Shown one piece after another: positions 5,245 through 54,408 of a stretch of 64,000 nt of DNA. Position 1 is the stretch's first letter; every line of letters starts with the position of its first letter. The notes beneath the pieces are model-generated. The model searched no databases. It was not told where the DNA came from and worked only from the letters and a program-made list of their open reading frames with translations. The translations under genes and the position numbers were made by a program. The stretch lies in IMG/VR virus record IMGVR_UViG_2675903278_000002; one strand, written 5' to 3'. This stretch comes from a virus (Duplodnaviria; Heunggongvirae; Uroviricota; Caudoviricetes).

Positions 5245-5293
5245 TCGCAATTATCTTATTAAGAAAACAATTTGTTTAAAAGGATAAGAAAAC

Positions 5294-5719
5294 ATGACAG
5301 CTATTAAGAAACTCTACGATGCCGCAAACGTGGCTCTGGATGTTATTGATGATGAAGTAGCAAAAGGCTTTCCTGAACCTGATTGGGCGCATCAGCTACG
5401 AAACGCTATCGCAGAAATGACCCCACCAGATCCAACCCCCGACGAGACAGACTGGCAGCGATTCATCCGTATGTACGCTCAGGAAATAGGTCCAACGCCA
5501 ACGGCAGAGCAGGCAATGCTGCTGAAATACTTCAAAGAGGCGGGAGAGGATTTACCAATTGATGACTCAGCATATTGGTTCCACTGCGCATGGCGTAAGT
5601 ATGACGTGATATTCACACAAGGCATGGGAAGCAAAGATATGGTTGTGTGGCATCTACTCCATATAGACACAGCCGTTGACAGAGTTATTGAACAGTTTTT
5701 CCCTAAACAAGAAGATTGA
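5294..5719 (+). CDS. hypothetical protein
   Basis: 141-aa ORF preceded by AAGAAAACAATTTGTTT motif. Confidence 0.5.
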   Translation: MTAIKKLYDAANVALDVIDDEVAKGFPEPDWAHQLRNAIAEMTPPDPTPDETDWQRFIRMYAQEIGPTPTAEQAMLLKYFKEAGEDLPIDDSAYWFHCAWRKYDVIFTQGMGSKDMVVWHLLHIDTAVDRVIEQFFPKQED

Positions 5720-5774
5720 TCGCCTATTCATAACTAACAAAATAAGTAAACACTAACCACAAAAGGAAAAACAC

Positions 5775-6050
5775 ATGAGAGTTTTAGTTCGAATCGTTAC
5801 CAGCACTGTCTATGACGTGTTTCCGCTTTTTATGGTCAAAGCCGATGGCCTTAACGACGAAGAAACTGACGCGCTGATCCAGCGTATTCTCGTTGAATAT
5901 ACAGGTCATGACGCTGATTCAGTGATGGTTGATGATGATGGTGTTTGTTGGCATAACGGCAACTGTTGGTACGTAGAAGAGACTCAACAAATCAGTGATG
6001 AAGATGCCGAACATCTTGAGCGTATTTTAAGCATCAGCACTTTTGAGTGA
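5775..6050 (+). CDS. hypothetical protein
   Basis: 91-aa ORF preceded by conserved leader AAAGGAAAAACACATG. Confidence 0.5.
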   Translation: MRVLVRIVTSTVYDVFPLFMVKADGLNDEETDALIQRILVEYTGHDADSVMVDDDGVCWHNGNCWYVEETQQISDEDAEHLERILSISTFE

Positions 6051-6265
6051 GTTTACAGTAAAATTTATATAAGTTAGTATCTACCTATCATGAAGATTTT
6101 TATTGAATACTTGTTACTCATCGTTTCAATAGCTTTTGTCATCGACTGCATTTTCACTGGTGTCATTCGTAAAGTCTTTTCCCCGGTGCACGACGTAGTC
6201 ATAAACGCTTTGGCTATCGTGCTCGTATTTAATTCAGCATTTGATGTAATCAAAGAGGTGGCAGC

Positions 6266-6601
6266 ATGAAGGCCATCCCATTCGCGCTGTTGTTCCTTTC
6301 TTCGATCGTTGTGGCCGACACCACTGTTTATCAGTGTGAAATGTCTGTAGCCGACGTTAAGAATGGCGCTCTTACCGACGTCATAAAAGCACCATATGGA
6401 GCGATGGTCGTAGACAGCGGCGACCAGTTCTATGTTGTGCGTGACGATCGAGTGTTGTCATCCCCATATCTCACAAATCGTAATGGCAAATTAACCGGCG
6501 TCGGAGAAGACCACTTCGTATACAACAAATACAAGGGCTTCTATGGCGTTCACGCTTCTCAGCAAAGCTACCTTTTCGATGACTGCAAGGAGGTTGGATA
6601 A
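6266..6601 (+). CDS. hypothetical exported protein
   Basis: N-terminal signal peptide (MKAIPFALLFLSSIVVA), 111 aa. Confidence 0.45.
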   Translation: MKAIPFALLFLSSIVVADTTVYQCEMSVADVKNGALTDVIKAPYGAMVVDSGDQFYVVRDDRVLSSPYLTNRNGKLTGVGEDHFVYNKYKGFYGVHASQQSYLFDDCKEVG

Positions 6602-6813
6602 TGGCATTAACACTGGCAGGTCTGGAAATCGAGAAAACAAGCGGCTACTGGCGTGCTAAGGGTTTCAAGCAGCCTGGCATTCTTGAGCGTCTGGAACGTG
6701 AAGATGGGTATATCGTCCACCAGCGGCGTGAATGGCGTATGTACGATCCAGAAACAGGAAAACTGACTACAAAAGCCGGAACACTTTGGGGTCTGTTGAA
6801 GAAAATACACTAA
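6601..6813 (+). CDS. hypothetical protein
   Basis: 70-aa ORF, start overlaps upstream stop. Confidence 0.4.
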   Translation: MALTLAGLEIEKTSGYWRAKGFKQPGILERLEREDGYIVHQRREWRMYDPETGKLTTKAGTLWGLLKKIH

Positions 6814-6820
6814 TAGCACC

Positions 6821-7303
6821 AACCACTGCGGTGAGTAGTCTGCTCACCGCATTCGTATCCAGCTCATTATCCACTGTAGTCAGTAACAAAACCTTCCTAC
6901 ATATCTGCTAACCACTGTAGCGAGTAGACAGCCTTTCATTCGCATCAAACAACCACTATGGTGAGTATTGGAGTGAGATGTCCAGCGGGTATCCACTATG
7001 GTGAGTAAGCCTTTGCTGTTTTCAGTGGATATCCACTCGCCACAGTGGATACGCTCAAAGATGAGGGCGACAACAACCACTATAGACAGTAAATTTTCCA
7101 AGATACCCAGTGACCACTAACCTCGCAGCCCTTGTTTCATCAGTGTTAGTGATCACTAACATTTAATTCAGTATTTGCATTCTACTGCCTACAGTGGTTA
7201 TCAACAGATAACGATACTCACTATAGTGGATAGCGAATTACAGATATAAGTAAGGCTCACTACAGTGGATAGTGAGCCTTACTACTAACTACAGTGGTTG
7301 GGC
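6821..7303. repeat. iteron array downstream of repA (about 10 copies of a ~19-bp repeat, both orientations; incA-like)
   Basis: repeated (A/T)ACCACT(A/G)T(A/G)G(T/C)GAGTA units at ~6821, 6869, 6910, 6951, 6991, 7026-7053 (palindromic pair), 7075, and inverted copies at ~7217, 7257, 7287. Confidence 0.75.
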
Positions 7304-8358
7304 TATTTGCGAGTCTTTGCCTTGCGCAACTCTTCGAGAAGCGCCAGTTCTTCTTTACTCAACATGACCATTTTGCCTTCTTTTTCGTCAGGCACAACGT
7401 CGATAATGTCATCTTGATTCTCATCTGGGAGGCTATATTCCGTCTCATCATTATCGATTTTTGTTGATATTTGTGCCTGGCGTAACTTTGGCCGCCTATA
7501 GTGGATGACGAAGTAGACCGAGTTTCCGCGCTTAACTTCCGTGTAATCGAGATATCCTATCTCTCGCAGCTGTTCCATAGCCTTTCTTACCGTCGCATTC
7601 TGAGTAATAGTGCGACTTGTCAGATTAAGTCTGGCGCGTAAACGGGCTAGTGATATTGGTGCCGGATCAGGCGGCAAACTTTCAATAAAAGTATAAAGCG
7701 CCTGAGCGGATTCTTTTCTTGAGAGTTCGTTTATAGCCCGGAGTTGCAGAAGAACCTTTTTGTCGAACTGGTAGAGTTCGAAAATCTTGGGATCTGCTTT
7801 CAGTTCGACCGTATCGTGCTTGACACTATATTTTGCCGTTTGCACAAGATGCGTTACGTAAAACTCATCAGAGCCTTTGCTACGGAACGAGATGGTATTT
7901 GTGGCAATACGGCTTAGCGAACTGTCCAGGCGTTTGCGTAACTTCGCTGATGACCTGGCGGTCGGAATGCCACACAGCCTTACAAACTCAACGAACGGCA
8001 ACGTGACAGTATCGCCAACGACCTTGTGTTTGGCAAACGCGTGGATTATTCCCACCCACGTTTTAAAGTCGTTATCCATATCAAGCCGAAGGCCAGAGAT
8101 CCTTATGTCTTCGTACCCTTCGGCTTTTGCCAGAGACAGCTGTTTGAGTTCAGCAGAGGCATCCATAGAGACCATTTGCCCCTTTCTTCCTCTGGATGTC
8201 GATTTCAGCGTCGGAACGAAGAGGCCCAGACGCATCAAAGCAACAGGCTGAACAGTGTTATTAGTGTTAGGAACCAACGTAACAACTTCGCCTGTCTTTT
8301 TATCTGTTTCTGAAAATGCTTCAACGATCGCTATGTTTTTATTGCCGTTTTCGCTCAT
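7303..8358 (-). CDS. repA: plasmid replication initiator RepA (P1 RepA / RepFIB family)
   Basis: 351 aa; recalled similarity to P1 RepA ([30 protein letters not shown]); flanked by iteron arrays. Confidence 0.8.
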
Positions 8359-8403
8359 TCCAAATGTCTCTTGTTATTCGACGGCTTTGGTGGCCTTTGC
8401 TGA

Positions 8404-8528
8404 TTACAGTGGATAGTAGCACTCATCACAGCGGTTATCCTACCGTCTATAGTGGTTTTTCTCCTCTCTATAGTGGTTGCTTTGCTCCCTATAGTGGATT
8501 ATTCGCTCTCTATAGTGGATATCGATCA
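8404..8528. repeat. six direct ~21-bp iterons immediately upstream of repA (origin/incC-like)
   Basis: TC(T/C)CTATAGTGG(A/T)T units at ~8404, 8425, 8445, 8466, 8487, 8508. Confidence 0.8.
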
Positions 8529-8559
8529 TGTCTGAAGGCAGATGGCACAACGGTTTGAG

Positions 8560-8690
8560 GTGGGCGGGGATCTTATTGGGTCTTTATGGGTCTCTTTGGT
8601 TCTCTTTGTGATCTGAATTACTGGATCGGGCCTGTGGATAAAAATCAGAGGATTTCAAGAACAGGTAACTCTACTCTTCTGTGGATATTT
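8560..8690. promoter_or_regulatory. origin-proximal region with perfect DnaA box and GATC sites
   Basis: TGTGGATAA at 8633-8641 (reverse complement of TTATCCACA); second near-box at ~8679; GATC at 8569, 8610, 8624; TCTCTTT repeats. Confidence 0.6.
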
Positions 8691-8800
8691 AAGGACATAA
8701 GAATCATGACTAAGAGTAGAGTTTAAAATATATCTATGTATATCAGTATGTTAATGAAGAATTAAGTCATTAAGTTATCCATAAAAGACAATGTGCTCTA

Positions 8801-8908
8801 CTCTCTACAGTGGATATATACAGCTCTCCAGAGTGGTTGTTTTACTCTTCATAGCGGTTATTCAGCTCTCTACAGAGGTTTCTTTGCTCTCCATAGTGGA
8901 TGGCAACA
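8801..8908. repeat. second array of five direct ~21-bp iterons
   Basis: units at ~8801, 8824, 8846, 8867, 8888, preceded by an AT-rich stretch (8690-8790). Confidence 0.7.
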
Positions 8909-16938: not shown

Positions 16939-16970
16939 GGTGGGGGATATCCCCACCTTCTCTTTGATTT
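16939..16970 (+). terminator. Rho-independent terminator after nrdA
   Basis: GGTGGGGG-ATAT-CCCCCACC hairpin then T-rich run. Confidence 0.65.
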
Positions 16971-17039
16971 GTAAGCCTTGTTTAAACACATAAGATAACA
17001 ACTTGTTTAAACGCACCAAAAAAGAAAAAGGAAAAACAC

Positions 17040-18182
17040 ATGTCATATTCAACGTTCCGTTTGGGTGCTAATGATGCAACCAAAGAGCCTATGTTCCTCG
17101 GACAATCTGTCAACGTGGCACGTTACGATCAGCAAAAATACCGTGATTTTGAAAAGTTGATTGAACGTCAATTGTCTTTCTTCTGGCGGCCGGAAGAAGT
17201 TGATATTTCGAGCGATCGTATCGACTTCAACACGAAGCTGCGGGACCACGAACGTCACATTTTTCTGAGCAATCTCCGTTATCAAACGTTACTCGATTCA
17301 GTTCAGGGACGTAGTCCAAATGCAACGCTGCTGCCGCTTATCTCTATTCCTGAACTGGAAACGTGGGTTGAAACGTGGTCTTTCTCTGAGACTATCCATA
17401 GCCGCAGCTACACCCACATTATTCGTGGCATGGTGGACGATCCGAGCATTGTTTTTGACGGTATTGTTACGGATGAAGAAATCATCAACCGAGCGATCAG
17501 TATCTCTGCTGAATATGACAGGCTTTATGGGATGACCTGCGAGCGCCAGTCGTTAGGTGAGAAGGAATTTGAGCGTCTGTACGTAAATGAATATGGCTGG
17601 GAGCCATACCCTTTGCACCGTCAGCTTTTCCGCACGTTGGTGTCCATTAATGCGCTTGAGGCGATCCGTTTCTATGTAAGTTTTGCATGTACGTTTGCCT
17701 TTGGCGAACGGAAGTTGCTTGAGGGTAACACCAAAATTATGCGCTTTATTGCCCGTGATGAAGCTCTGCATTGCGAAGGAACTGAACGCATGATCCGCTT
17801 CATGCGTACCGGTCGCGAAGGTTTATTGTGGAAAGAGATTGCTGCTGATGAAGAAAACGTCATTTACGACACCATGAAATCAGTCGCCGAACAAGAAATG
17901 AACTGGGCAGACTATCTCTTCAAAGACGGTTCGATGATTGGTTTAAACGCGGATATTCTCAAAACCTATGTAAAATACCGCACCAATCTGGCTATGAATC
18001 GTCTTGGCCTGAAGGCTTTATTTCCAGAGGTTACCACCGATCCGCTGGTCTGGATGAACAAGTGGTTGTTAACCGACACACTGCAAATTGCACCACAAGA
18101 GGCAGAGCAAAGCACATATCTGGTAGGTCAGATCGATTCTACCGTGGATAAGGCTTCTCTAAGCCAGTTTGCAGACCTGTAA
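17040..18182 (+). CDS. nrdB: ribonucleotide reductase class Ia beta subunit
   Basis: 380 aa, position after nrdA, di-iron ligand-like E/H pattern. Confidence 0.85.
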
Positions 18183-32436: not shown

Positions 32437-32574
32437 GCGCTACAAATCCTTCTGCATGAATAAATAAAGGCCATAACTTATGGCCTTAAATAAATTGTTT
32501 TCTACATTTTCTTATTTGTGAAAATAAACCAGCACTTGGTAGTGCTTATGTAACAGCAAAGAAGAGAAAAACAC

Positions 32575-33030
32575 ATGAGTAACAAAATCGAAAATCCCGT
32601 AGTTCTCATTCACAAGCGCGAGAACCACGACTCCTATGCGGTGGCGATCACCAATGGGAGTCACGATTTTTACGATGGCCTGCTAATGGCCTCAGTGTCG
32701 CCTGATGAGGCAGACAACTCTTTTGCCGTCTTCGCTATGGTTGGTTACTACATGGCTGCTGAAATTGAGAAGTTGCGGGCGCAGAGAGACGCATTAGCGG
32801 CGGAGAATGCAGCCCTGAAAGAATCTGAGCGAGCATTCGATGCGATGTGTGCCGAGGAACACGGAGATAATTGGGTTAGCGAATTAACGGAGACTCCAGC
32901 CACCGATGCTTTTCTGGCTGAAGTACGTGCGCAGGGCGTGGAGATGTTTGCTGAGTGCGCATACACACTTGAACATCATGATCACGCAGTAGCTTTTGCC
33001 GCTGAGCTTCGTACAGGAAATAAACAGTGA
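32575..33030 (+). CDS. hypothetical protein
   Basis: 151-aa ORF; leader AGAGAAAAACACATG. Confidence 0.5.
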   Translation: MSNKIENPVVLIHKRENHDSYAVAITNGSHDFYDGLLMASVSPDEADNSFAVFAMVGYYMAAEIEKLRAQRDALAAENAALKESERAFDAMCAEEHGDNWVSELTETPATDAFLAEVRAQGVEMFAECAYTLEHHDHAVAFAAELRTGNKQ

Positions 33031-34825: not shown

Positions 34826-35077
34826 ATGAGCGACTGGAATATTGCAGCTAAAAGTCAGGAAGAACGGGATAAGGTTAACGTTGATCTGGCTGCCAGCGGT
34901 GTGGCGTACAAAGAGCGATTGAACATACCTGTCATAGCTGAACAGGTAGCCCGCGAGCAACCAGAGAACCTGCGCACCTATTTCATGGAACGGTTACGGC
35001 ACTACCGGCAGTTAAGCCTCCAGTTGCCAAAAGGAAGCCATCCGGTGTATCAGAACGAGGATGCACCAAGAAAATAA
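34826..35077 (+). CDS. hypothetical protein
   Basis: 83-aa ORF. Confidence 0.4.
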
Positions 35078-35514: not shown

Positions 35515-35534
35515 TACTGTATGAATAAACAGTA
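35515..35534 (+). promoter_or_regulatory. LexA (SOS) box
   Basis: TACTGTATGAATAAACAGTA matches CTGT-N8-ACAG consensus; ~20 nt upstream of the UmuD-prime-like start. Confidence 0.75.
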
Positions 35535-35552: not shown

Positions 35553-35942
35553 ATGGGCTTCCCTTCTCCTGCGGCGGATTATGCAGAGAGCCGTATTTCT
35601 CTTGATCAGCAACTAATCAGACATCCTTCAGCGACCTACTTCATGCGGGCAGCTGATAGTCATCATCGTGAGGGAATATTACAGGGTGCATTGCTGGTGG
35701 TCGATTCCTCACTTACCCCGGTTGATGGTTCTCTGCTTGTATGCGCTCTGGATGGGGAATATCGCGTAAAAAGATACCGGAAGTACCCACGTCAGCATCT
35801 GGAGGATTTAAGAACCGGTAAGAAGGAAGCATTGCCAAAGGATGACGATGGATGCACGGGCAGCAATGCCGTGTTTGGTGTGATCACTCACATTATCAAC
35901 GACGCAAGAAGTGGCGAGTTTGATGATTGTCCCGTGATGTAG
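35553..35942 (+). CDS. UmuD-prime-like protein (S24 peptidase fold, begins at the position of processed UmuD)
   Basis: N-terminus MGFPSPAADYAE corresponds to UmuD residues just after the autocleavage site; QLIRHPSATYF, ADS and VK motifs retained. Confidence 0.8.
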   Translation: MGFPSPAADYAESRISLDQQLIRHPSATYFMRAADSHHREGILQGALLVVDSSLTPVDGSLLVCALDGEYRVKRYRKYPRQHLEDLRTGKKEALPKDDDGCTGSNAVFGVITHIINDARSGEFDDCPVM

Positions 35943-37080: not shown

Positions 37081-37236
37081 CCCGTCTCCTTTATTTTAAT
37101 TTGCGCAATTGTCGCCTTGTAGTGTACTCCAGCTACGACATTTAATCATTTATGAGAAATGCTGTTATCACATGGCAGACATAAGGCCATTTTGTTACTA
37201 TCAAGCCCCTTTTCACTACAAAGAAGTAATGCCTAC

Positions 37237-39271
37237 TATGACCCAAGTCGCGAAGAAAATTCTGGTGACGTGCGCGCTGCCGTACGCTAACGGCTCAATC
37301 CACCTCGGCCATATGCTGGAGCACATCCAGGCTGATGTCTGGGTTCGTTACCAGCGAATGCGCGGCCACGAGGTTAATTTCATCTGTGCCGACGATGCCC
37401 ACGGTACGCCGATCATGCTGAAAGCACAGCAGCTTGGTATCACACCGGAGCAGATGATTGGCGAAATGAGTCAGGAACACCAGACTGATTTCGCAGGCTT
37501 TAACATCAGCTATGACAACTATCACTCGACGCACAGCGAAGAGAACCGTCAGTTGTCTGAGCTTATCTATACTCGCCTGAAAGAGAACGGTTTTATTAAA
37601 AACCGCACTATCTCTCAGTTGTACGACCCGGAAAAAGGCATGTTCCTGCCGGATCGTTTTGTAAAAGGCACCTGCCCGAAATGTAAAGCGCCAGATCAAT
37701 ACGGCGATAACTGTGAAGTCTGCGGCGCAACATATAGCCCGACTGAATTGATCGAGCCGAAATCGGTGGTTTCTGGCGCTACCCCGGTAATGCGTGATTC
37801 CGAACACTTCTTCTTTGATCTGCCTTCTTTCAGCGAAATGTTGCAGGCATGGACCCGCAGCGGCGCGTTGCAGGAGCAGGTGGCGAACAAAATGCAGGAA
37901 TGGTTTGAATCCGGCCTGCAACAGTGGGATATCTCCCGAGATGCGCCTTACTTCGGTTTTGAAATTCCGAACGCGCCGGGCAAATATTTCTACGTCTGGC
38001 TGGACGCGCCGATTGGCTACATGGGTTCCTTCAAGAATCTGTGCGACAAGCGCGGCGATACCACCAGCTTCGATGAATACTGGAAGAAAGACTCCACCGC
38101 CGAGCTGTACCACTTCATCGGTAAAGATATTGTTTACTTCCACAGCCTGTTCTGGCCTGCCATGCTGGAAGGCAGCAACTTCCGCAAGCCGACCAACCTG
38201 TTTGTTCACGGCTATGTGACGGTGAACGGCGCGAAGATGTCCAAGTCTCGCGGCACCTTTATTAAAGCCAGCACCTGGCTGAATCATTTTGACGCCGACA
38301 GCCTGCGTTACTACTACACTGCGAAACTCTCTTCGCGCATTGATGATATCGATCTCAACCTGGAGGATTTCGTTCAGCGCGTGAATGCCGATATCGTGAA
38401 CAAAGTGGTTAACCTGGCCTCCCGTAATGCAGGCTTTATCAACAAGCGTTTTGACGGCGTGCTGGCAAGCGAACTGGCTGACCCGCAACTGTACAAAACC
38501 TTTACTGATGCCGCTGAAGTGATTGGCGAAGCATGGGAAAGCCGCGAATTTGGTAAAGCTATCCGTGAAATCATGGCATTGGCTGACCTGGCTAACCGCT
38601 ATGTCGATGAACAGGCTCCGTGGGTGGTGGCGAAGCAGGAAGGACGCGATGCCGATCTGCAGGCGATTTGCTCTATGGGCATTAACCTGTTCCGCGTGCT
38701 GATGACGTACCTGAAGCCGGTACTGCCGAAACTGACTGAACGTGCAGAAGCATTCCTGAATACAGAACTGACCTGGGATGGTATCCAGCAACCGCTGCTG
38801 GGCCATAAAGTAAATCCGTTCAAGGCACTGTATAACCGCATCGATATGAAGCAGGTTGAAGCACTGGTGGAAGCATCCAAAGAAGAAGTGAAAGCCACAG
38901 CCGCACCGGTAACTGGCCCACTGGCTGACGACCCGATTCAGGAAACTATCACCTTTGACGACTTCGCCAAAGTTGACCTGCGCGTGGCGCTGATTGAAAA
39001 CGCAGAGTTTGTAGAAGGTTCTGACAAACTGCTTCGCCTGACGCTGGATCTCGGTGGTGAAAAGCGTAATGTCTTCTCAGGCATCCGTTCCGCTTATCCA
39101 GATCCACAGGCACTGATTGGTCGTCACACCATTATGGTGGCTAACCTGGCACCACGTAAAATGCGCTTCGGTATCTCTGAAGGCATGGTGATGGCTGCTG
39201 GCCCCGGCGGGAAAGATATCTTCCTGTTAAGCCCGGATGCTGGTGCTAAACCTGGCCACCAGGTTAAGTAA
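37237..39271 (+). CDS. metG: methionyl-tRNA synthetase
   Basis: 677 aa from [10 protein letters not shown]; HIGH-type [12 protein letters not shown] and KMSKS motifs; near-identical to E. coli MetG as recalled; large antisense ORF 37295..38806 rejected. Confidence 0.95.
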
Positions 39272-39319: not shown

Positions 39320-39432
39320 TATAGACACAATCCCTTCTGATTTACACAGTACCTAAAACAATTTGTTTTCTGCCTTTTGTTGATGGAGATAATAAACCAC
39401 ATAAGAAAACAACTTGTTTTGGAGTGGTTGAA

Positions 39433-39732
39433 ATGTTGAACATTACCCAAGCCTACCAGGTGGCATTGATCAGCTCATCTCATACATCAGAGGAAGATGC
39501 TCGCCGATTCATGATCGCAAGCAATGAGCTGGATTGGGTTTCACAAATTGAGTACGGTTGCATTGTCCACGCCGGGTTACAGGACGATGACTGGAAAGAT
39601 GAGTTGCGTCGATATGGTATATCCGAGGGCGCGATTGCGAACATTCAGAAAGTACTTGATGTAGGCTTTGACTCTGTACATTTTGATTGTGGTGCACCGG
39701 TCGTTGAAGGGCTAGAGTGCTGGCAATGGTAA
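39433..39732 (+). CDS. hypothetical protein (accessory cassette)
   Basis: ATG 39433, two motif A copies upstream (39356-39370, 39403-39420). Confidence 0.5.
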   Translation: MLNITQAYQVALISSSHTSEEDARRFMIASNELDWVSQIEYGCIVHAGLQDDDWKDELRRYGISEGAIANIQKVLDVGFDSVHFDCGAPVVEGLECWQW

Positions 39733-39768: not shown

Positions 39769-39954
39769 ATGCTTAAAGAAGACTCATATCTACTAAAGGC
39801 GCTTGAAATGCGTGGCGTTGAACCTACAGTGAAAAACGCTCACGATATCTACCTTCAGTTTTCACCGGAGCTGAAACGGTTCATAAATCAATACGGGGTT
39901 AATGACTCAAGTGTTAAAGCAATGATAGATGATGAATTAGACCATCTCATCTAA
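39769..39954 (+). CDS. hypothetical small protein
   Basis: 61-aa ORF with RBS. Confidence 0.4.
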   Translation: MLKEDSYLLKALEMRGVEPTVKNAHDIYLQFSPELKRFINQYGVNDSSVKAMIDDELDHLI

Positions 39955-40795: not shown

Positions 40796-41560
40796 TTGTT
40801 TATACAAATAAGAAAACAACTAAATAACAGATCAACGAAACGTCAACGCTTTCACCCGATTTGGTCTAAAAAATTGACGTTTTCACACATCACTTCTTAT
40901 ACCCGTAACTCTACGCAGCAGACATCGCCACAGCGTCCAATTTTCACCACAGACGACCCAACACACTACCAACAAAAACACACGCTCAAAATCGCTCCCG
41001 TTGCGTTACACAACCATATAAACAACTTATTTTCAGGCATAACAAAACAACTAAATAACACACATGCCATTTCCAAAAACAACCAACCTCTTTATGGCAG
41101 GCTACCGAAAAGACCCACCTCTTCTCCCCAGGCTACCGGACAACCAACCTAACTTTCACAGGCAATCCGAAAACATTCATACGCGCGATACCCACGACAC
41201 GCCATTACCCAAACAGCGAAGAAACACCAGAATCACTGAACCCCCAACGAAGCCTGTAACCGCAAGGCTTCTCTCAATCCCAAAAGACACGAAACAGAAC
41301 AATCACGGGAAACGCCATTACCCAACACACGAATAACTACAAAAGCCCTTCACGCACTCCAGACAAACAACTCAAACACAATAACGAAAGGAATCGCCCA
41401 CCTGCCATTACTCCATACACGGAGAAGAACAATCACCAAAACGACGAGAACACCCCATAGAAGAACCACCGCAAAACGAACGAAACCACATACACCGACA
41501 GAGAGAACAACACACCCAATTCACCAACAGAATTAGTCGCCGTATAGAACGTTCTGGAAG
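40796..41560. other. ~750-bp strongly strand-asymmetric C/A-rich, G-poor non-coding tract
   Basis: top strand dominated by A and C with few G; only low-complexity ORFs; internal ~30-bp repeats CAGGC(T/A)ACCG... at ~41097, 41130, 41159. Confidence 0.6.
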
Positions 41561-41747
41561 GAGTGAGTGTTAACGTCCATAGAGAGGTTGAGACAGATAA
41601 AACACGAATAAAACACAACATGTATAGCGAAGAAGCCAGGTATGTATAAGTGGGGAGAGAAGGAGGGGTGTCGCCTCCTTTTTCGTATTTATTCAACTCC
41701 TGATTTTACCCCCCGTAACACCCCTACGGTCAGCCTTCGGTCCATAC

Positions 41748-41890: not shown

Positions 41891-42259
41891 AGCGTGAGGG
41901 AGAGTTGCGGCTGTCCACCTGTAATGTGCGGGAAGAAGAGAGGCGCTCACGTGCAGGCGAACTTACTTACCGCTGGATTCCCTCTGAATGCCCAGCTACA
42001 GCGTAATTGTGCCAGACAGTCAGCGGGTCACAATCGATTTCAGTAGGTTTTCGGGGAGAAGAAAATTCTGCCCACCAGCCCTGCGGCGCGCGTAGAGCAG
42101 AATATCGTAAATACTGGTTCCGTGTCGTTCCCGGATACTCACTACCCAGCCTGGCTTTCCCGACATAAAATCCTTTTCCGCCTTTGTCTTATTGCGATAA
42201 TAACACCAACAAGTAAACAACATGTTTAGACGTTATATAAACGAAGTGAGGATGAAGAG

Positions 42260-42478
42260 ATGATTAAGATGCCTGTGACGGTTGAGGTGTGGGGCGTGGA
42301 TTCCCTGGCTGAGTGTCTGGATGCAGTGGGGCCGGAGTTGTACCGCAAGTTGTGGTCGTTCGTCCCGGCAGAAGGGGAATCGCCCAAAGGGAAGGATATC
42401 TGGCACCTGCTGAGTGAAGATGAAAAGCGGGAGCTGGTGGACGCGGTACACAGCGAGTTCCCGGGCGACGAAGATTAA
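42260..42478 (+). CDS. hypothetical small acidic protein (cassette)
   Basis: 72 aa; motif A at 42211-42228; terminator hairpin GGCCACCAGCACGGTGGC after stop. Confidence 0.5.
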   Translation: MIKMPVTVEVWGVDSLAECLDAVGPELYRKLWSFVPAEGESPKGKDIWHLLSEDEKRELVDAVHSEFPGDED

Positions 42479-42616
42479 GAGTGAGGCCACCAGCACGGTG
42501 GCTTTTGTCGCTATTAACCTCCGGGCAGCGCAGCACCGTAACGATATACTTTGTGGCCGTTTTCTTACTGGTATTGTTTACGCAATTCAGAAAACAACAT
42601 GTTTAAGGATTGCGTT

Positions 42617-42946
42617 ATGTTTGCAAATATCGACATCAACCAAATCAAGAAAATGACTCAAAAAGAGTTTGACCAGTTTTATGAGTTAGAAGGTTGGTCT
42701 TCCACTCTGATCAATTCGCGGTGGGTGCTTGAGCTGATGACTCGTGATGACGCACCTGCTTTGATGATTTGCGACATGGGTGAAGATGCTGACTTTATGG
42801 ATATGAGCGAATTTTGTGTGGACACATACAACCGCAGCCAGAAGTACTACTTCACATGCGATAGCGAAAATGACGTGATTTCTAAGGTCTATCTTCACCT
42901 CGTCCAGCATTGGGACGTTCAGGAGTTTCTTGAAGTATTCGAGTAA
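42617..42946 (+). CDS. hypothetical protein (cassette)
   Basis: 109 aa from ATG 42617; motif A at 42588-42606; hairpin after stop. Confidence 0.5.
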   Translation: MFANIDINQIKKMTQKEFDQFYELEGWSSTLINSRWVLELMTRDDAPALMICDMGEDADFMDMSEFCVDTYNRSQKYYFTCDSENDVISKVYLHLVQHWDVQEFLEVFE

Positions 42947-43099
42947 CCCCAACCAAAGCCAGCATTGCTGGCTTAATTTCTCTATAGCCGCAGGGAAGAA
43001 CCTGCATATCGCTCATGCACCTGATCAATATGCTTTGTAGCCGTTTTCTTACTGGTATTATTTACGCCATTGAGAAAACAAGTTGTTTACGGAGTTGTG

Positions 43100-43411
43100 A
43101 TGAAAAAATCATTGGTTCTTGGTCTGGACAAAGACCAGAAGAGAAAAGAGAAGCCTGCGCTGGTTGCTCAATTAACTTTGCTGGACATCGTTGCCAATGG
43201 AACCTCTATTCGTCTGTTCCGTGAAACAGCGGTGTCTTTCGATAAAAACACCTTTACTCGTTATGTAATGAATGTTCGTCGCCAGCGTGGAAAAGGCTGG
43301 GTGGCATTTCAAAGAATGTGGCCGGAACATCAGCTCGAACTGGCTTTGATGGAAGTTAACCGCGTGGCCCAGCAAGAGATTCAGAGAGCATCAGTGATGG
43401 CAATAGCCTGA
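43100..43411 (+). CDS. hypothetical protein (cassette)
   Basis: 103 aa from ATG 43100; motif A at 43072-43090; upstream ~65 bp homologous to the 42541-42606 region. Confidence 0.5.
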   Translation: MKKSLVLGLDKDQKRKEKPALVAQLTLLDIVANGTSIRLFRETAVSFDKNTFTRYVMNVRRQRGKGWVAFQRMWPEHQLELALMEVNRVAQQEIQRASVMAIA

Positions 43412-43474: not shown

Positions 43475-43537
43475 TATTGTAAGTACATACTTATGATCAT
43501 AGAATATAAAAATAACCAAAACACTACGGAGAGTGAA

Positions 43538-43933: not shown

Positions 43934-44050
43934 TCCTCTTTAAATGGCGCGTAAACCGCGCCATTTTCTTATGCCCGATAACAATTTGTTTTCTGCCTTA
44001 TCTGATTTGTGAAAATGATTTCACTGAAGCAACTTAATAAGGAAACCATC

Positions 44051-44425
44051 ATGGGACTTGATATCTATATCGAGACACAGCCTAAAAACGATCTGAATAA
44101 CGAGGCATCCAGAAAGCAGGTTGCTTACTTCCGTAAGTTCAATGCGCTCGTTGGGTGGATGGAGCGCAACGTAGGTGAAGTCGAAAATTGTGAGCTTTTA
44201 GAATTAACGATGAATGACATTTGTTTTCTGAAGGCTCATTTGATGCACATAAACGAAAGTAATTGCGAAGAGTACTTGCCTACCCGGGAAGGTTTTTTCT
44301 TCGGCAGTCAGGAGTACGATGAAGGTTACTGGCATGATGTGGGGCAGTTGAAAGAGCTTGTGGAAGATCTGATTAAGAACCACGACTTTCACAATAACAG
44401 ACTGACCTTCTGCGCCTGGTGGTAA
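44051..44425 (+). CDS. hypothetical protein (cassette)
   Basis: 124 aa from ATG 44051; motif A variant at ~43981-43993. Confidence 0.5.
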   Translation: MGLDIYIETQPKNDLNNEASRKQVAYFRKFNALVGWMERNVGEVENCELLELTMNDICFLKAHLMHINESNCEEYLPTREGFFFGSQEYDEGYWHDVGQLKELVEDLIKNHDFHNNRLTFCAWW

Positions 44426-44571: not shown

Positions 44572-44760
44572 TTATTAAGGCCACCAGCATTGGTGGTCTT
44601 AAATGACTTTTAATAACCGAAGGTTAGTTTGAAACCTGGCTATCAACTTCCAGAACCTTTCTTGTGTATTCAGCCTGTATTAACTTCTTTTATGCCTTAT
44701 CTACACTGCGATAATTACACCAACAAGAAAACAACATGTTTACGCAGTGAGGATATGCTC

Positions 44761-45042
44761 ATGACTGATTTCACCATTACCCCTAAAGCACAAAATGTAT
44801 TTCTTGAATCATGGCTGGACTTGCCGGAAACAGAACAGCAAGAAATGGATCATGTGGATTATGACGAGCAGGTAAGCACGCGATTCTTCCACTTTGAGGG
44901 ATGCGTTTACGACATTGCTGACTTCATGCGAGATGACCGCTTCCCTGAATGGCACGCCAGTTATCCACTAAACGCCTTTGCCATGCTGATGATCCGTGTG
45001 GATGATTCAGGGGATACCATCGACATCGGTCTGCTCCACTAA
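44761..45042 (+). CDS. hypothetical acidic protein (cassette)
   Basis: 93 aa from ATG 44761 (RBS GAGGA); motif A at 44726-44743; hairpin GGCCACCAATGCTGGTGGCC after stop. Confidence 0.5.
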   Translation: MTDFTITPKAQNVFLESWLDLPETEQQEMDHVDYDEQVSTRFFHFEGCVYDIADFMRDDRFPEWHASYPLNAFAMLMIRVDDSGDTIDIGLLH

Positions 45043-45180: not shown

Positions 45181-45246
45181 TTATTCGTACAACGATAATT
45201 AACACCAACAAGAAAACAATTTGTTATTTACGATAAGGAATTAATC

Positions 45247-45729
45247 ATGAATTTTATCGCTACTGTAAACGCACCCGCACATGGCAATATCGCTGTAACG
45301 TTCTCTGACATTGAAAAACGAGTACTTGGTGCATGGCGCGACAATGAGACGGTAGAACTGTCAGCACAAGAAAAATGCATTATTGCACGCGACATCATTG
45401 GCAATCGTCGTTACTCGCGGGTATTTGAGAAAGCGTATGTGGTAAATTCTGGGTTCGGAACGTTCGTCTTTCCGGTGCGCTCCGGGCGATTCTGCCAGTC
45501 CAAGCTGATTGAGTTCGCTACGCAGATTTCTGTCTGGATTAAAACTCAATCGTCGTTCAAATTTTCCGACGATGAAGCAGTATCGCAGGGGATGCGGATC
45601 GCCAACAATGCGATTAAATGCAAAAACATTACGTATACCGCTGGCGTTGATACATGGAAACTGTTTTGCGCTAACTTTATGCTGAATGTATACGCAAGCA
45701 ACCGCATCCACATCCTTGATGGCGTGTAA
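45247..45729 (+). CDS. hypothetical protein
   Basis: 160-aa ORF; motif A at 45210-45227; terminator hairpin ~45735-45757. Confidence 0.5.
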   Translation: MNFIATVNAPAHGNIAVTFSDIEKRVLGAWRDNETVELSAQEKCIIARDIIGNRRYSRVFEKAYVVNSGFGTFVFPVRSGRFCQSKLIEFATQISVWIKTQSSFKFSDDEAVSQGMRIANNAIKCKNITYTAGVDTWKLFCANFMLNVYASNRIHILDGV

Positions 45730-46850: not shown

Positions 46851-47501
46851 TTACGCTTTGAAAGCATCAGCTAAATAATTGTAGAAATCATTTTTAATGA
46901 AGCGATATTGCTGAGTACCAGCTTTCGCGCTCCCAGCTCCTTTGACTTTTTCAACAAGTCCAAGACGTTCGCAAAGATTGATCAACTGGTTGGCTTGAGT
47001 ATAGCCAGCGTCCAATTTAATTTCGCACGCTTTTTTCGCTTCATTCATTAAATCGAAAACAGCGCCATTGGTGAACGTGTCGATCTCGTCGTTAATCATA
47101 TCGATTAATGCGAATACACGAGATCCGGACATATCAGCGACGGAATAAACACACTTTCCAGCTTTAATGGATTTAACCAGATAAACCAGTTTTTCCAGAG
47201 AATAACTATTAGTCATTGCATCACGGAAAAATACTTCTGGCGCTTGTTTGCTTGCTTTGATCGCATAGTAGAAAACAGAGCACAATTTTTCGTCTTCTAC
47301 AGCGTTTACAACGTTGTTGATGAAGTAAGCAAGTTTAGTGGTTGCAGCTTGCATATTTGCTTTGTCTGCTTTGGTGTGCGTGCCATTTTTATAATGTTCG
47401 TTATATGTTTGAGTTGCCAGATCTGCTTTTTCGCGCAGTTCATCGGATACAATGGAAGCAGCTTCAATGATGGATTTTTTAGAAATGATAATGTTAGCCA
47501 T
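46851..47501 (-). CDS. hypothetical protein (low-GC island)
   Basis: 216 aa; RBS AAGGAAAAATTATCATG; possible helix-turn-helix-like C-terminal segment. Confidence 0.5.
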   Translation of the reverse strand: MANIIISKKSIIEAASIVSDELREKADLATQTYNEHYKNGTHTKADKANMQAATTKLAYFINNVVNAVEDEKLCSVFYYAIKASKQAPEVFFRDAMTNSYSLEKLVYLVKSIKAGKCVYSVADMSGSRVFALIDMINDEIDTFTNGAVFDLMNEAKKACEIKLDAGYTQANQLINLCERLGLVEKVKGAGSAKAGTQQYRFIKNDFYNYLADAFKA

Positions 47502-48096: not shown

Positions 48097-48621
48097 TCAA
48101 AAAGGCAAAATTCGTTCAACCCAATCGAACAAAACAACTATTTTTCTACCGTTCTCGACACGTAGTGTAACCTGACAAGCATCTGCGCCTGCTGACACCC
48201 CCTCAATTTCACGGCCATCCGCCATGTACACCCTTATAGATTTGTTTGCTTTGTAGGCTTGGTTGCAAATTGCAAAAAAATCGCGGCGTGATGGCCGATT
48301 ATCGACATAATCAGGGTGAACTGTTAGTCGACCTTTGAAATCGTGAGCGATACTGTCAACCACACCTGATTCAATTGTACTAATGCGTTCAAGTGGGAGC
48401 CTTATACGATTTTCTTTGTCAAAAGGGGCTGGGCAAAGGTCAACTTTGTTACGAGATGGCATGAGGCCATAAACGTACATGCAAAACGCCTGGCCATCTT
48501 CGAGAGTGACCCTTACAGGAATTTGTTCTCTGCGCCAGAACATCAGTAGTTTTTCAACGTTAGTGTAATCTCGCGGCCAGAGTTCAGCTTGGATACCGTA
48601 GGTAATATCTTTGGTTGTCAT
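48097..48621 (-). CDS. hypothetical protein
   Basis: 174 aa from internal Met chosen to avoid overlap with upstream lipoprotein gene; start uncertain. Confidence 0.4.
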   Translation of the reverse strand: MTTKDITYGIQAELWPRDYTNVEKLLMFWRREQIPVRVTLEDGQAFCMYVYGLMPSRNKVDLCPAPFDKENRIRLPLERISTIESGVVDSIAHDFKGRLTVHPDYVDNRPSRRDFFAICNQAYKANKSIRVYMADGREIEGVSAGADACQVTLRVENGRKIVVLFDWVERILPF

Positions 48622-49116: not shown

Positions 49117-49395
49117 TTATTTTAATCTGCTTAATAGCGTTTCGAGATCTTCCTTTGTCATATTAGAGTTCTCATAGATACGCATGATTTTCTCACGAGT
49201 CTTAGCGGAAGCCCCGACAGAAGATATAACCTTGTCAAAGTCGGCCATTGTCAATTGTTCCAGAATGGTATTTATGACTTCAGCCTTAGACATTTTGATA
49301 TTTTTTTCTTTTAGTTTCACTTGAAACTTTCCAAGTTTGTCATTGGCCTTATCAGACAATGCTACCTGACAGTAAGTTGTTTTCTTTTCACTCAT
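49117..49395 (-). CDS. hypothetical protein
   Basis: 92-aa ORF directly downstream of the helicase gene on the minus strand. Confidence 0.45.
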   Translation of the reverse strand: MSEKKTTYCQVALSDKANDKLGKFQVKLKEKNIKMSKAEVINTILEQLTMADFDKVISSVGASAKTREKIMRIYENSNMTKEDLETLLSRLK

Positions 49396-49397
49396 AA

Positions 49398-52388: not shown

Positions 52389-53050
52389 GCAAATACATCA
52401 TCAACGTATCGTTTCAGACACGCGTAAATAAAACCACGCGCACGTTGGAAATCGCTGAGTCGTTCGGGCTTGGCCTGGACGAAAAAGAGTGGACGCTTTA
52501 CGACAATCTGGAGCTGGAAGTGAAGCAGGGCGATGTGGTGTACATCACCGGCCAATCCGGTTCCGGCAAATCCGTTGTGCTGCGCGAGTTGCAACGACAG
52601 ATGAAGGATGAAGGGCTGTCTGTAGCCTCCATCGATGATTTTACCTTCGATAATGAGGTTAACGTCATCGATCAGTTGGGCAAAACGACCAGTGATGCGC
52701 TTGGGTTGTTATCTATGGCTGGTCTGAACGATGCATATCTGTTTGTTCGCAAGCCTTCTGAAATGTCAGACGGCCAGAAATATCGTCTCAAGATTGCCAA
52801 ACTGATTGAGTCAGGCGCTAAAGTATGGGCTGCTGACGAGTTCGGCGCTGTTCTCGACCGTGTAACCGCTCAGGTTGTGGCGTCTAACCTCCAGCGTGCC
52901 GCTCGAAAGGTTGGTGCGACGGTAATGGTGGCGACGACTCACGAAGACCTGAAGAACGCGCTGCGCCCTGATATGCAGATCACCAAGCACTACAAAGAAC
53001 GCGTGAAGGTGGAATATCACAATGGTAGTCATGATGAGGTCCATTCATGA
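52385..53050 (+). CDS. standalone ABC-type ATPase
   Basis: Walker A GQSGSGKS, ABC signature-like LSDGQKYRL, Walker B VWAADEFG, H-loop ATTHE; 221 aa, no transmembrane partner nearby. Confidence 0.55.
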   Translation: MSKYIINVSFQTRVNKTTRTLEIAESFGLGLDEKEWTLYDNLELEVKQGDVVYITGQSGSGKSVVLRELQRQMKDEGLSVASIDDFTFDNEVNVIDQLGKTTSDALGLLSMAGLNDAYLFVRKPSEMSDGQKYRLKIAKLIESGAKVWAADEFGAVLDRVTAQVVASNLQRAARKVGATVMVATTHEDLKNALRPDMQITKHYKERVKVEYHNGSHDEVHS

Positions 53051-53937
53051 CGGACATCATCATTAAACGCTACCGCCCTGAAGAGTTTCCGCGTCATCTG
53101 GACTTTCTGGAGCGAATGACTGTTACAAAGGGAACTGTAGAGGACTGGCACGCTCTTAAGTCGCTTCACTACAAAACAGACGGCAAACCTTTCGCGCCAA
53201 CTTACTATCGCTGCGAACTTGATGACCGTCTGGTGGGCGTCGTGGTTATGGCTTACCCGAAACTACTGTTGGCACCTCGCCACCGCATGTTTCCTAAGTT
53301 GAAACCAACCACTAATACCACCGTGGCTAACCAGTACTGGGGTCGGTACGTGAATAACAACTTTGCGGTGATCAGTCGCTCAGTTGTGGATACTCAGTAT
53401 CGTGGCGTAGGCGTCTCTTATAGAATGATTAACCTGGTTAGCAGGATGCATGACCGGCCAATCATTGAGATCCAGTCCTCGATGAGCAAATACAATCCCT
53501 TCGCCATGAAAGCAGGGTTTAAGTTCATCCGCCCTGAGCGACCGAAGAGCTATGAAAGTGCACTGCGTGTGTTCCAGCGCCATTTCCGCTCCGACCCGGG
53601 TGATAACGAGGCGATCGTCAAAGAGTTGTTCGCTATGAGCGAGTCTCGTCGTCGCCGTGCGCTGCGCGATTTGGTGGCGGACTACCATAAGAACAGTTCC
53701 CTGGCAAAAGCTGGGCGGAATCGTGGCACGACGATTCAGGACATTGCCGACAGTCTGGTGGACGAGGCCAGCATTGTGAAGCTGCTCAAGGACATTCACA
53801 ACCTGAGCTTTACGTCTCCGTTGTATGGTGTGTACCGAAACCCTGACTTTGGCCGTCGACTGCCTGACACGCTGCCACTGCTGGCATTCGACAAACAACC
53901 TTTGGATAAACCGTTAGAAATTGCTTTACCGGCATAA
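53047..53937 (+). CDS. hypothetical protein with GNAT acetyltransferase-like core
   Basis: GNAT motif-A-like QYRGVGVSYRMI; 296 aa. Confidence 0.35.
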   Translation: MTDIIIKRYRPEEFPRHLDFLERMTVTKGTVEDWHALKSLHYKTDGKPFAPTYYRCELDDRLVGVVVMAYPKLLLAPRHRMFPKLKPTTNTTVANQYWGRYVNNNFAVISRSVVDTQYRGVGVSYRMINLVSRMHDRPIIEIQSSMSKYNPFAMKAGFKFIRPERPKSYESALRVFQRHFRSDPGDNEAIVKELFAMSESRRRRALRDLVADYHKNSSLAKAGRNRGTTIQDIADSLVDEASIVKLLKDIHNLSFTSPLYGVYRNPDFGRRLPDTLPLLAFDKQPLDKPLEIALPA

Positions 53938-53946
53938 GGATTTGCC

Positions 53947-54213
53947 ATGACGTTAACCGACAAACAAAAGGACATCATCAAAACGCTCAATCTCGGTTAT
54001 GAGCGAGGTCATCTACTTGACCTGGACGAATTGCTTGAAGTTTTGCCGTACAAGACAACCAAGCAAAGTATCCAGTTCTCAATTCGCGCTCTGATAAAAA
54101 AGGGGCTGGTGGAGAAAGGGCATACGCGCCAACGCAGTGACAATCGCTATCACCGCCGGACTCTTGGGTTAACCACTTTAGGTCGAGCCAAAGCGAAGTT
54201 ACTGGTGATGTAA
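53947..54213 (+). CDS. small putative winged-helix DNA-binding protein
   Basis: 88 aa, basic, helix-turn-helix-like central segment. Confidence 0.35.
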   Translation: MTLTDKQKDIIKTLNLGYERGHLLDLDELLEVLPYKTTKQSIQFSIRALIKKGLVEKGHTRQRSDNRYHRRTLGLTTLGRAKAKLLVM

Positions 54214-54228
54214 TCGGTCTGGGAGCTT

Positions 54229-54300
54229 ATTTAAAGACCTGCATCTGTATATATAAATAATAAGTAACTTATTAAATATATACGGAAGCAGGCTTCGTAA
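54229..54300. promoter_or_regulatory. GC-clamped hairpin element with TATAAATA core (copy of the 24751-24809 element)
   Basis: CTGTATATATAAATAATAAGTAACTTATTAAATATATACGGAAGCAGGC; followed by two motif A copies (54328-54344, 54353-54370) upstream of TerS. Confidence 0.45.
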
Positions 54301-54408
54301 GACATGCCAGACCTAATTAAACACCCCAGAAAACAAGTTGGTTAGCAGATGCAGTAAACAAGTTGTTTTAGAGCGCATGGACGCGCTCTGTGTGTTTTAG
54401 AGGGATCT

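Follow-up and report, generated by a model that had tools for sequence, protein, structure and literature searches.

A dispersed dyad motif defines a regulon in an SSU5/pHCM2-type phage-plasmid and may be the operator of a lineage-specific repressor

What does a short near-palindrome do when it recurs ahead of genes throughout a phage genome? This question was raised by a 64,000-nucleotide stretch of DNA (the window; IMG/VR record IMGVR_UViG_2675903278_000002, Caudoviricetes), in which a preliminary description had detected a dispersed motif of ~17 bp, here termed motif A, and had proposed either an operator for a repressor binding many sites, as P1 C1 does, or the core of a phage-specific promoter. 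Escherichia phages CMS-2020a, Cyrano (pLF82), and PhiR41_1 were 95 to 97% identical to the 39- to 46-kb segment of the window, which matched Klebsiella phage-plasmids and Salmonella phage SSU5 more weakly, and TerS and an FljA-like protein were 100% identical to their counterparts in CMS-2020a (CP053388). On the basis of these identities, the window was assigned to the SSU5/pHCM2-type phage-plasmids and, as judged from sequence, is ~60% of a ~108-kb Escherichia coli element. Phage-plasmids of the SSU5/pHCM2/pMT1 type are common in E. coli, Klebsiella, Salmonella, Enterobacter, and Yersinia pestis, and nothing was found in the searchable literature on the control of lysogeny, replication, or late genes in them; a preprint on heteroresistance concerned an unrelated phage-plasmid family. 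The analysis opens up the regulatory circuit of this very widespread family. Its outcome is a testable wiring scheme with two operator classes, in which motif A would be located at ~15 to 19 promoters, including those of parA, dnaB, nrdB, cobT, and terS, and a lineage-specific module of three genes contains two candidate regulators.

Recurrence, location, and conservation of motif A

The window was searched with the 17-mer AAGAAAACAAnTTGTTT, allowing up to 2 mismatches, and the expected number of matches was derived from 100 shuffles. Fifteen matches were detected, compared to an expectation of 0.14 ± 0.38, and none of the 100 shuffles reached 15. With a position weight matrix (PWM) built from the copies, all 15 scored at least 22.7 and the next independent match scored 18.4. 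The recurrence of the motif was therefore borne out, and the coordinates given in the preliminary description were correct to 1 to 2 nt, although its list lacked the copy at 32488 and did not record that the copies at 32488, 39356, and 43979 are inverted. Degenerate half-sites near 40.8 to 41.05 kb (described at 40809, 41024, and 41040) do exist but are weak, with PWM scores of 13 to 17.

Once gene starts had been refined, 14 of the 15 copies were wholly intergenic in a window of which only 13% is noncoding (binomial P, ∼6 × 10−12); the sole overlap of the fifteenth was with a 47-codon open reading frame (ORF) that is not annotated in phage Cyrano. An unbiased count of intergenic words ranked AGAAAACAA first among 9-mers, with 11 of its 16 occurrences being intergenic. 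An Rfam covariance-model search of the whole window gave no match, and a tRNA scan detected nothing. Twelve copies were oriented with the downstream gene. The three inverted copies were further upstream, each shortly 3' of the terminator hairpin of the preceding gene. The direct copies ended 11 to 40 nt before a start codon preceded by a Shine-Dalgarno (SD) sequence, close to the distance of 14 to 45 nt first reported, with the first of two terS copies being 65 nt before the start. The genes marked by the motif were as originally stated, namely, small accessory genes, nrdB, the TerB-like gene tciA, and terS. Motif A is present at ~13 gene heads in the window, on or just after the predicted promoter.

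Strong copies numbered 19 in SSU5 and 17 in Klebsiella phage pJN2-26. The genes shared by these elements were terS, parA, dnaB, nrdB, tciA, orf27978, a DUF4942 gene, and the small-gene cassettes. The rest of the Cyrano genome had further copies before parA and the replicative helicase gene and a weak inverted one before cobT, and the motif was also present in loci from Kluyvera, Buttiauxella, Y. pestis, and two metagenome-assembled genomes. When the upstream regions of orthologous genes were aligned, conserved islands stood out between spacers that had diverged: the 17-mer, blocks resembling a −10 box and a weak −35 element, and the SD sequence with its ATG. The conserved core is the dyad AAACA-N3-TGTTT, which has 5-bp arms and a variable 3-nt center (AnT, ACA, ACG, or AGA); in one divergent lineage the arms extend to 6 bp (GAAAACA-GGA-TGTTTT). 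A one-sided A-rich extension, (A/C)AG-A, was present in both orientations, indicating that the site is inherently asymmetric. Motif A is real and conserved, and the proposal that it defines a regulon holds, since orthologues in elements of E. coli, Salmonella, and Klebsiella share it.

Position relative to predicted promoters

Regions around 30 copies were examined with our own scan, which allowed weak −35 and extended −10 elements and took the 95th percentile of random positions as its score cutoff; all promoters and start sites given here are predictions. A scan for canonical σ70 promoters at the thresholds of the tool gave no match at motif A sites, and no canonical σ70 pair was detected in the 39- to 46.5-kb region. 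The 50 copies found in four genomes consisted of 38 direct and 12 inverted copies. Among those with a callable start, 33 of 36 direct copies ended 11 to 40 nt (median, ∼19 nt) before an SD-preceded start, and 7 of 8 inverted copies were 51 to 85 nt upstream, the exception being that of Klebsiella cobT, at 14 nt. A TAnnnT-type hexamer ended exactly 9 to 10 nt upstream of 20 of the 38 direct copies, and 16 of the 38 had a TGn-extended −10 box. A neighboring σ70-type promoter reaching the cutoff was present at 24 of the 30 tested copies and was conserved between orthologues.

The register between the motif and the promoter varied from gene to gene. At nrdB (TTGnnn-16-TAAGAT), the −10 box draws on motif positions 1 to 5, and an nrdB-specific A-to-T change at motif position 5, which supplies the last T of this box, is kept in all three genera. 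The dnaB promoter (TTGAT[C/T]-16-TAGTAT or TACGAT) abuts the motif, while that of parA (TTTACA-17-TAGGCT) is 11 nt upstream and the −10 boxes of orf27978, the DUF4942 gene, and the cassettes end 9 to 10 nt upstream. At cobT, the orientation of the motif flips between genomes at the same position, being direct in SSU5 and inverted in Klebsiella and Cyrano. An extended −10 box ends 8 to 11 nt upstream of it in SSU5 and Klebsiella; in Cyrano, TGcTACATT ends 12 nt upstream of the weak inverted copy by our own reading, the automated search having preferred another arrangement. No credible σ70 promoter was found at tciA or terS. Among high-scoring promoters, the −10 box ended between 8 nt into the motif and 11 nt upstream of it, a spread of ∼19 nt, and the predicted +1 fell between ∼3 nt ahead of the motif and motif position 16. 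Inverted copies that were paired with a direct copy were exactly 47 bp upstream in three genera, over the −35 position.

Many copies are nonrandomly placed on or beside promoter-like elements. Their overlap with the −10/+1 region shifts in register from promoter to promoter and does not depend on orientation, which suggested operator-like behavior. A promoter core would keep a fixed register, and a pure RNA leader element would always be 3' of +1; the predicted start inside the motif at nrdB and dnaB would leave most of the motif untranscribed there. Of the two mechanisms initially put forward, an operator for a repressor acting at dispersed sites was the better supported, and a phage-specific promoter core was not, since the motif was found downstream of or on an ordinary σ70-type −10 box and not as a fixed-register element replacing −35 and −10.

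The direct copies in the window are on the plus strand. The first, AAGAAAACAATTTGTTT (5261 to 5277), is 16 nt before the ATG at 5294 of a DUF7238 gene and 3' of the terminator hairpin GGCGTCC-AGTT-GGACGCC-T6. The nrdB copy, AAGATAACAACTTGTTT (16992 to 17008), precedes the ATG at 17040 and is overlapped by the predicted promoter TTGTAA (16969 to 16974)-16 nt-TAAGAT (16991 to 16996). The copy TAGAAAACAACTTGTTT (27214 to 27230) begins 15 nt beyond the stop codon that closes the preceding ORF and ends 24 nt before the tciA ATG at 27255. A copy of AAGAAAACAACTTGTTT (27943 to 27959) is 18 nt before the ATG at 27978 of orf27978 (phrog_5508), for which the promoter TTGCTC-16-CACAAT was predicted; it ends 9 nt short of the motif and is shared with SSU5 and the Klebsiella element. 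The inverted copy TAGAAAACAATTTATTT (32488 to 32504; minus strand) is directly 3' of a terminator hairpin and is followed by TGtGAAAAT (32517 to 32525) and the ATG at 32575. An inverted copy at 39356 to 39372 (minus strand) is 47 bp, center to center, upstream of a second AAGAAAACAACTTGTTT copy (39403 to 39419) and covers the −35 position of its GATAAT promoter; this −10 box (39388 to 39393) is 9 nt upstream of the direct copy, which is 13 nt before the ATG at 39433 of a gene for a protein with a DUF5983 C-terminal domain. Extended −10 boxes precede AAGTAAACAACATGTTT (42211 to 42227; TGcGATAAT, with GATAAT at 42196 to 42201; 32 nt before the ATG at 42260), CAGAAAACAACATGTTT (42588 to 42604; TGgTATTGT, 42572 to 42577; 12 nt before the ATG at 42617), GAGAAAACAAGTTGTTT (43072 to 43088; TGgTATTAT, 43056 to 43061; 11 nt before the ATG at 43100), and AAGAAAACAACATGTTT (44725 to 44741; TGcGATAAT, 44710 to 44715; 19 nt before the ATG at 44761). 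The third inverted copy (43979 to 43995; minus strand) is again 3' of a terminator hairpin and is followed by TGtGAAAAT (44008 to 44016), upstream of the ATG at 44051. Ahead of AAGAAAACAATTTGTTA (45210 to 45226), 20 nt before the ATG at 45247, a −35-like TTGACG is separated by a 15-nt spacer from a GATAAT −10 box (45194 to 45199).

The head of terS has two copies, CAGAAAACAAGTTGGTT (54327 to 54343) and CAGTAAACAAGTTGTTT (54352 to 54368), the latter being 40 nt before the ATG at 54409. Between motif A and the terS SD sequence is a plus-strand leader hairpin, AGAGCGC-ATGGAC-GCGCTCT, followed by GTGTGTTTT (54370 to 54398), whose stem is kept across lineages by compensatory changes (AGAGCGC/GCGCTCT, GAGCGC/GCGCTC, GGCGTC/GATGCC, and GGCGC/GCGCC). 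This hairpin has an AGGA-containing loop, is followed by a U-tract in only some lineages, and may be an attenuator of the late operon. A perfect-arm hairpin of ∼57 bp, GCCTGC(T/A)TCTGTATATATAAATAA...(T/A)ATATACGGAAGCAGGC, occurs in two copies (24752 to 24808 and 54238 to 54293), the second of which is just upstream of the terS motif pair and encloses a core, ATAAGTAACTTAT, resembling that of motif B, described below. These structures could be pac related, terminators, or regulatory.

Candidate binders and competing explanations

A second dispersed palindrome, motif B, (A/G)TAAGT-N2-5-ACTTA(T/C), was detected in 17 copies in the window, compared to an expected 2.1 (601, 4121, 6070, 9870, 14558, 19271, 24106, 26325, 31291, 43480, 51008, 56299, 57802, 59722, and 63297, among others), and in 24 copies in SSU5 and 21 in the Klebsiella element. 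Copies are present in the −35/−10 spacer of canonical σ70 promoters heading ssb, sbcD, nrdA, thyX, and parB/uvsW (for example, TTGATA-17-TAACAT before nrdA; at 43477, the scan tool itself returned TTGTAA-17-TAGAAT) and also between structural genes. Motif-B-like palindromes were observed in the divergent region of Cyrano between CYRAN_45, a helix-turn-helix (HTH) repressor gene expressed in the lysogen, and CYRAN_46. The two motifs are separable, as some distant relatives have motif B without motif A. There are thus two operator classes, and the presence of motif B in the promoters of large early genes and beside the HTH repressor indicated that motif A is the second class and not "the" immunity operator. 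The initial comparison with P1 C1 is to be qualified accordingly. SSU5 lacks the whole int/CYRAN_45/CYRAN_46 module and yet has 19 copies of motif A and 24 of motif B, so CYRAN_45 is only a candidate binder of motif B. As a binder of motif A it was rejected, since its own divergent region has palindromes of the motif B type and not of the motif A type and SSU5 keeps motif A without it.

In the transcriptome of the LF82/Cyrano lysogen (PMC9928086, Table S1), 13 of 14 motif A genes were at RNA background and parA was 5-fold above it. CYRAN_45, toxin-antitoxin systems, repA, a umuD-like gene, uvsW, and CYRAN_117 were clearly on.

The distribution of potential binders was compared with that of the motif in 80 TerL-anchored IMG/VR loci with 56 to 100% TerL identity, 50 of which could be classed by the slot of the FljA-like gene (20 with the gene and 30 with the slot covered but empty); one truncated contig (L145) was misclassified in this sorting. 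The orientation-free core AAACA-N3-TGTTT was present in 20 of 20 loci with the FljA-family gene (28 matches in 388 kb, compared to 0.6 expected) and in 0 of 30 loci with an empty slot. A module downstream of uvsW followed the same pattern in motif-containing and motif-free loci: the FljA-like gene was detected in 20/20 versus 0/30, a gene for a 92-amino-acid (aa) protein in 20/20 versus 2/30, and a gene for a 216-aa protein (46851 to 47501 in the window) in 17/20 versus 0/30. UvsW, ParB1, ParB2, the ABC protein, p296, p88, TerS, the portal, and the major capsid protein all persisted in relatives without the motif, which speaks against either ParB or the 88-aa protein as its partner. One locus (L168) had a homologue of the 92-aa protein with neither FljA nor motif A, and no alternative dispersed dyad was found in the 21 kb of it examined. 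A UvsW-anchored genome scan returned only close relatives; each had every candidate, so the scan yielded no natural knockout. The matches listed by an exact-pattern scan of IMG/VR were not discriminating. The outgroup Pseudomonas phage nickie is syntenic and has no FljA or dispersed motif, but it is too distant and has a GC content of 57%. The genes behind motif A were also considered as autoregulated regulators and set aside, as all encode DUFs or PHROGs of unknown function. No polymerase, sigma domain, or activator was detected among ~50 proteins screened against Pfam and PHROGs, a set short of every ORF and in which many are of unknown function; a Pfam screen of ~30 further unknown proteins gave nothing useful.

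On balance, we consider that motif A is probably, if by no wide measure, a DNA operator whose repressor is element encoded and specific to the lineage and would occlude the −10/+1 region. The motif would cover this region at ∼15 to 19 σ70-type promoters per genome in SSU5/pHCM2-type phage-plasmids, governing parA, dnaB, nrdB, cobT, and many small accessory-gene cassettes, with terS and tciA having the motif without a recognizable σ70 promoter. Binding of the repressor would hinder the binding of RNA polymerase or promoter clearance, and repression would be reinforced at some promoters by the inverted copy that lies 47 bp further upstream and covers −35. A second regulon, beside that of motif B, would in this way be kept silent in the plasmid-prophage state. 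This interpretation is supported by the enrichment, intergenic location, and conservation of the motif at orthologues with drifting flanks and by the variable register of conserved promoters, the flip at cobT, the inverted copies at 47 bp, and the conserved dyad arms. Also counted in its favor were the background RNA levels of 13 of 14 motif genes in the lysogen, the co-occurrence with the module downstream of uvsW, and two properties of the 92-aa protein, namely, the expression of its Cyrano orthologue and a pattern compatible with the ribbon-helix-helix (RHH) fold.

The 92-aa protein (49117 to 49395, minus strand; phrog_1466), encoded just downstream of uvsW, is the favored candidate for the DNA-binding partner. 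Its orthologue, CYRAN_117, was expressed at ∼12-fold background in the lysogen. A strand, helix, turn, helix pattern is reminiscent of RHH proteins, dimers built from an N-terminal beta-strand, helix A, a G/N-x-S/T turn, and helix B; the helices predicted at residues 15 to 30 and 37 to 47 are compatible with this, and the protein is possibly a member of this class. RHH regulators and centromere binders (omega of pSM19035, ParG, CopG, Arc, and Mnt) are small dimers whose targets are short repeats, inverted or direct, that overlap promoters, and omega also controls the promoter of the type Ib parA gene (delta) and other dispersed promoters. The motif A site is unrelated in sequence to the sites of these proteins, and the RHH membership of the 92-aa protein is putative.

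Several observations weigh against repression by a DNA-binding protein of this kind. An hhalign comparison of the 92-aa protein with CopG gave an E value of 0.028 in the right register but a probability of ∼2%, close to negative controls; the AlphaFold2 monomer had a mean predicted local distance difference test (pLDDT) score of 55, and there was no Pfam RHH match even at an E value of ≤10. The RHH assignment was backed by none of the formal comparisons, among them a PDB sequence search. The co-occurrence of motif and module probably stems from one clade and so from effectively one evolutionary event, and the phyletic pattern fits the FljA-like protein equally well. Most phage genes were also at background in the lysogen, so the transcriptome, although in accord with silencing, was not discriminating (Mann-Whitney P = 0.31). 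The bias toward direct copies (38 to 12), with independent copies near transcription start sites being nearly all direct, would not be required by a symmetric dimer. There is no recognizable σ70 promoter at tciA or terS, and the tciA copy is intercistronic. Finally, the binder is a candidate and the promoters are predictions.

The other candidate regulator of the module would act on RNA. The FljA-family protein (48097 to 48621, minus strand; 174 aa) matched PF03614 over its full length (E = 2.5 × 10−84) and keeps the invariant residues of the family alignment. FljA-type proteins have been described as blocking the translation of fliC mRNA. An AlphaFold2 model of the protein (pLDDT, 86) consists of two modules of a helix and five strands, whose best PDB matches were Hfq and Sm/LSm proteins; the family is thus predicted to have a tandem Hfq/Sm fold, and no paper linking FljA to this fold was found in a literature search. 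Such a fold would explain action at the RNA level and raises the question of the role of the protein in hosts without flagella. This predicted fold and the distribution of the family were unexpected. The FljA-like family is found almost wholly on contigs of 100 to 115 kb. The phage-plasmid clade has only 38 to 40% identity to proteins named phase-1 flagellin repressors, and no usable members of the clade were found outside SSU5-type elements. The gene was on 831 plasmids in PLSDB; plasmids with an intact copy included 341 from Klebsiella and 62 from Yersinia. In locus L170 (IMGVR_UViG_3300045988_137065), a highly divergent member of the FljA family (26% identity; 3003 to 3518, minus strand) was observed together with the variant motif GAAAACA-GGA-TGTTTT at terS (9320), which may reflect covariation of protein and site.

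The motif might accordingly be read in 5' leaders or intercistronic mRNA by this protein, instead of or besides DNA binding, with ribosome binding blocked and the mRNA destabilized, as reported for FljA on the fliC leader, to give a global posttranscriptional lock on ∼19 genes. We regard this, the main competing explanation, as unlikely. The distribution of the FljA-like gene matches that of the motif exactly, the gene is intact on many plasmids, the fold is suggestive, and most copies are in a sense-oriented leader near an SD sequence, as at the cassettes, parA, and SSU5 cobT. The Salmonella fliC leader contains the 8-mer CAAGTTGT, which is also the core of motif A, within a 10-nt segment that the fljB leader lacks; the likeness amounts to this 8-mer (P of roughly 0.002 in a 40-nt region, by our own estimate), and motif A was not found in the fliC leader of E. 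coli K-12. The targets here are ∼19 phage-plasmid genes, not a single flagellin gene. The conserved nrdB and dnaB promoters predict starts inside the motif, which argues for action on DNA unless read-through transcripts are the relevant ones. The 12 inverted copies are mostly upstream of predicted promoters, and those 47 bp upstream over −35 have no obvious role in RNA. Conservation of the dyad would be unexpected for a single-strand binder, and as RNA the motif forms a marginal hairpin (−0.7 kcal/mol), has arm variants that are not compensatory, and is no more unpaired than its surroundings. A DNA operator and an mRNA leader site for FljA could both hold.

It is improbable that motif A is a promoter core or activator site for a middle or late gene class that includes terS. 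The −35 elements at the cassettes are weak or absent, with no canonical σ70 pair from 39 to 46.5 kb; two copies but no σ70 promoter precede terS, with which the late operon begins; and the genes behind the motif are off in the lysogen. A fixed upstream register is, however, the rule for promoter cores and class I/II activator sites, and the motif is 3' of or over the −10 box with a spread of ∼19 nt. In addition, many of the −10 boxes are TGn extended and need no activator, parA has the motif and yet is on in the lysogen, and no RNA polymerase or sigma domain was detected in the proteins screened. Quite improbable, too, is the absence of any dedicated binder, the motif being part of a promoter-terminator cassette spread by recombination or an A/U-rich translation enhancer or RNase cleavage site. 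The motif RNA is A/U rich, and several of the small ORFs at 39 to 46 kb are parted by a terminator and a conserved promoter module of ∼55 bp in which the distance from the −10 box to the motif is fixed at 9 to 10 nt. This arrangement resembles the PeSL (promoter-early plus stem-loop) cassettes that reportedly flank small ORFs in T4-type phages and are said to have been described by Arbiol et al. in 2010, but the module here has a specific dyad operator that is also present at core promoters outside cassettes. At parA, dnaB, nrdB, and cobT, the motif occurs without cassette sequence, in another register, and even flipped, and the 17-mer is constant while adjacent spacers diverge and is missing from relatives that share the backbone. 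Dispersed centromere or ParB-type sites, such as those of N15 or the KorB operators of RK2, would fit a copy at the parA promoter, two ParB_N proteins encoded nearby, and the format of a 13-bp palindrome. We find this barely credible, since all 30 motif-free relatives have both ParB1 and ParB2 and the copies are tied to gene starts.

As a DNA operator, motif A would, by analogy, belong in kind with the dispersed-operator regulons of P1, IncP, and inc18 plasmids. P1 C1 recognizes an asymmetric 17-bp consensus, ATTGCTCTAATAAATTT, at many sites and controls ban, lpa, ref, and other genes. The element described here is likewise a phage-plasmid with many asymmetric 17-bp sites over ∼100 kb at replication (including replicative helicase) and accessory promoters, but the site is unrelated in sequence, no homologue of C1 was detected, the operators fall into two classes, and motif A is mostly at +1 to +20 and not within −35/−10. 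The global regulators KorA and KorB of RK2/IncP plasmids act at many promoters of the backbone through the operators OA and OB, palindromes of 12 to 13 bp. Like these plasmids, the element here would have its backbone governed by two sets of short palindromes at scattered promoters, that of the partition operon among them, whereas KorB is a ParB homologue and the ParB-like proteins here do not track the motif; no KorA-like HTH protein was identified.

Other features of the element

According to the Cyrano annotation, the order of genes is uvsY/gp32-like ssb, repA, sbcCD, nrdAB, and thyX; after these come an extended run of small accessory genes, a block on the minus strand at 46 to 51 kb, parB-like genes, terS, terL, and head genes. 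Iteron-like repeats, ACAGTGG(A/T)T, flank repA (7303 to 8358, minus strand) at 7042 to 7299 and 8406 to 8815, as expected for a plasmid origin. The element encodes a homologue of the theta subunit of DNA polymerase III (34826 to 35077; PF06440, E = 4.5 × 10−34) and a full-length methionyl-tRNA synthetase (37109 to 39271), and a faint, subthreshold match to the T7 gp5.9 RecBCD inhibitor was detected at 39769 to 39954. A perfect LexA-box core, CTGTATGAATAAACAG (35517 to 35532), is 21 nt upstream of a umuD/humD-like gene (35553 to 35942), whose Cyrano orthologue was on in lysogens and rose further in macrophages, consistent with control by the host SOS response.

Two long regions may be transcribed as noncoding RNA. 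The first, a structured-looking intergenic region of 584 nt (25146 to 25729) upstream of an RNase H-like gene, had no Rfam family match; CYRAN_81, a 44-codon ORF in the corresponding region of Cyrano, was at ∼12-fold background in lysogens, suggesting an abundant noncoding RNA. The second, an A+C-rich, G-poor stretch of ∼850 nt (40796 to 41650; 40% A, 30% C, 14% G), is probably noncoding and likewise had no Rfam match. It has degenerate copies of motif A at its 5' end (40810 and 41020) and GCCATT(A/T)C repeats at 41066, 41201, 41314, and 41404, and it ends at a terminator (41657 to 41690). The ORF annotated in its Cyrano counterpart had zero reads in the lysogen, and the stretch may be a long noncoding RNA or an origin-like region.

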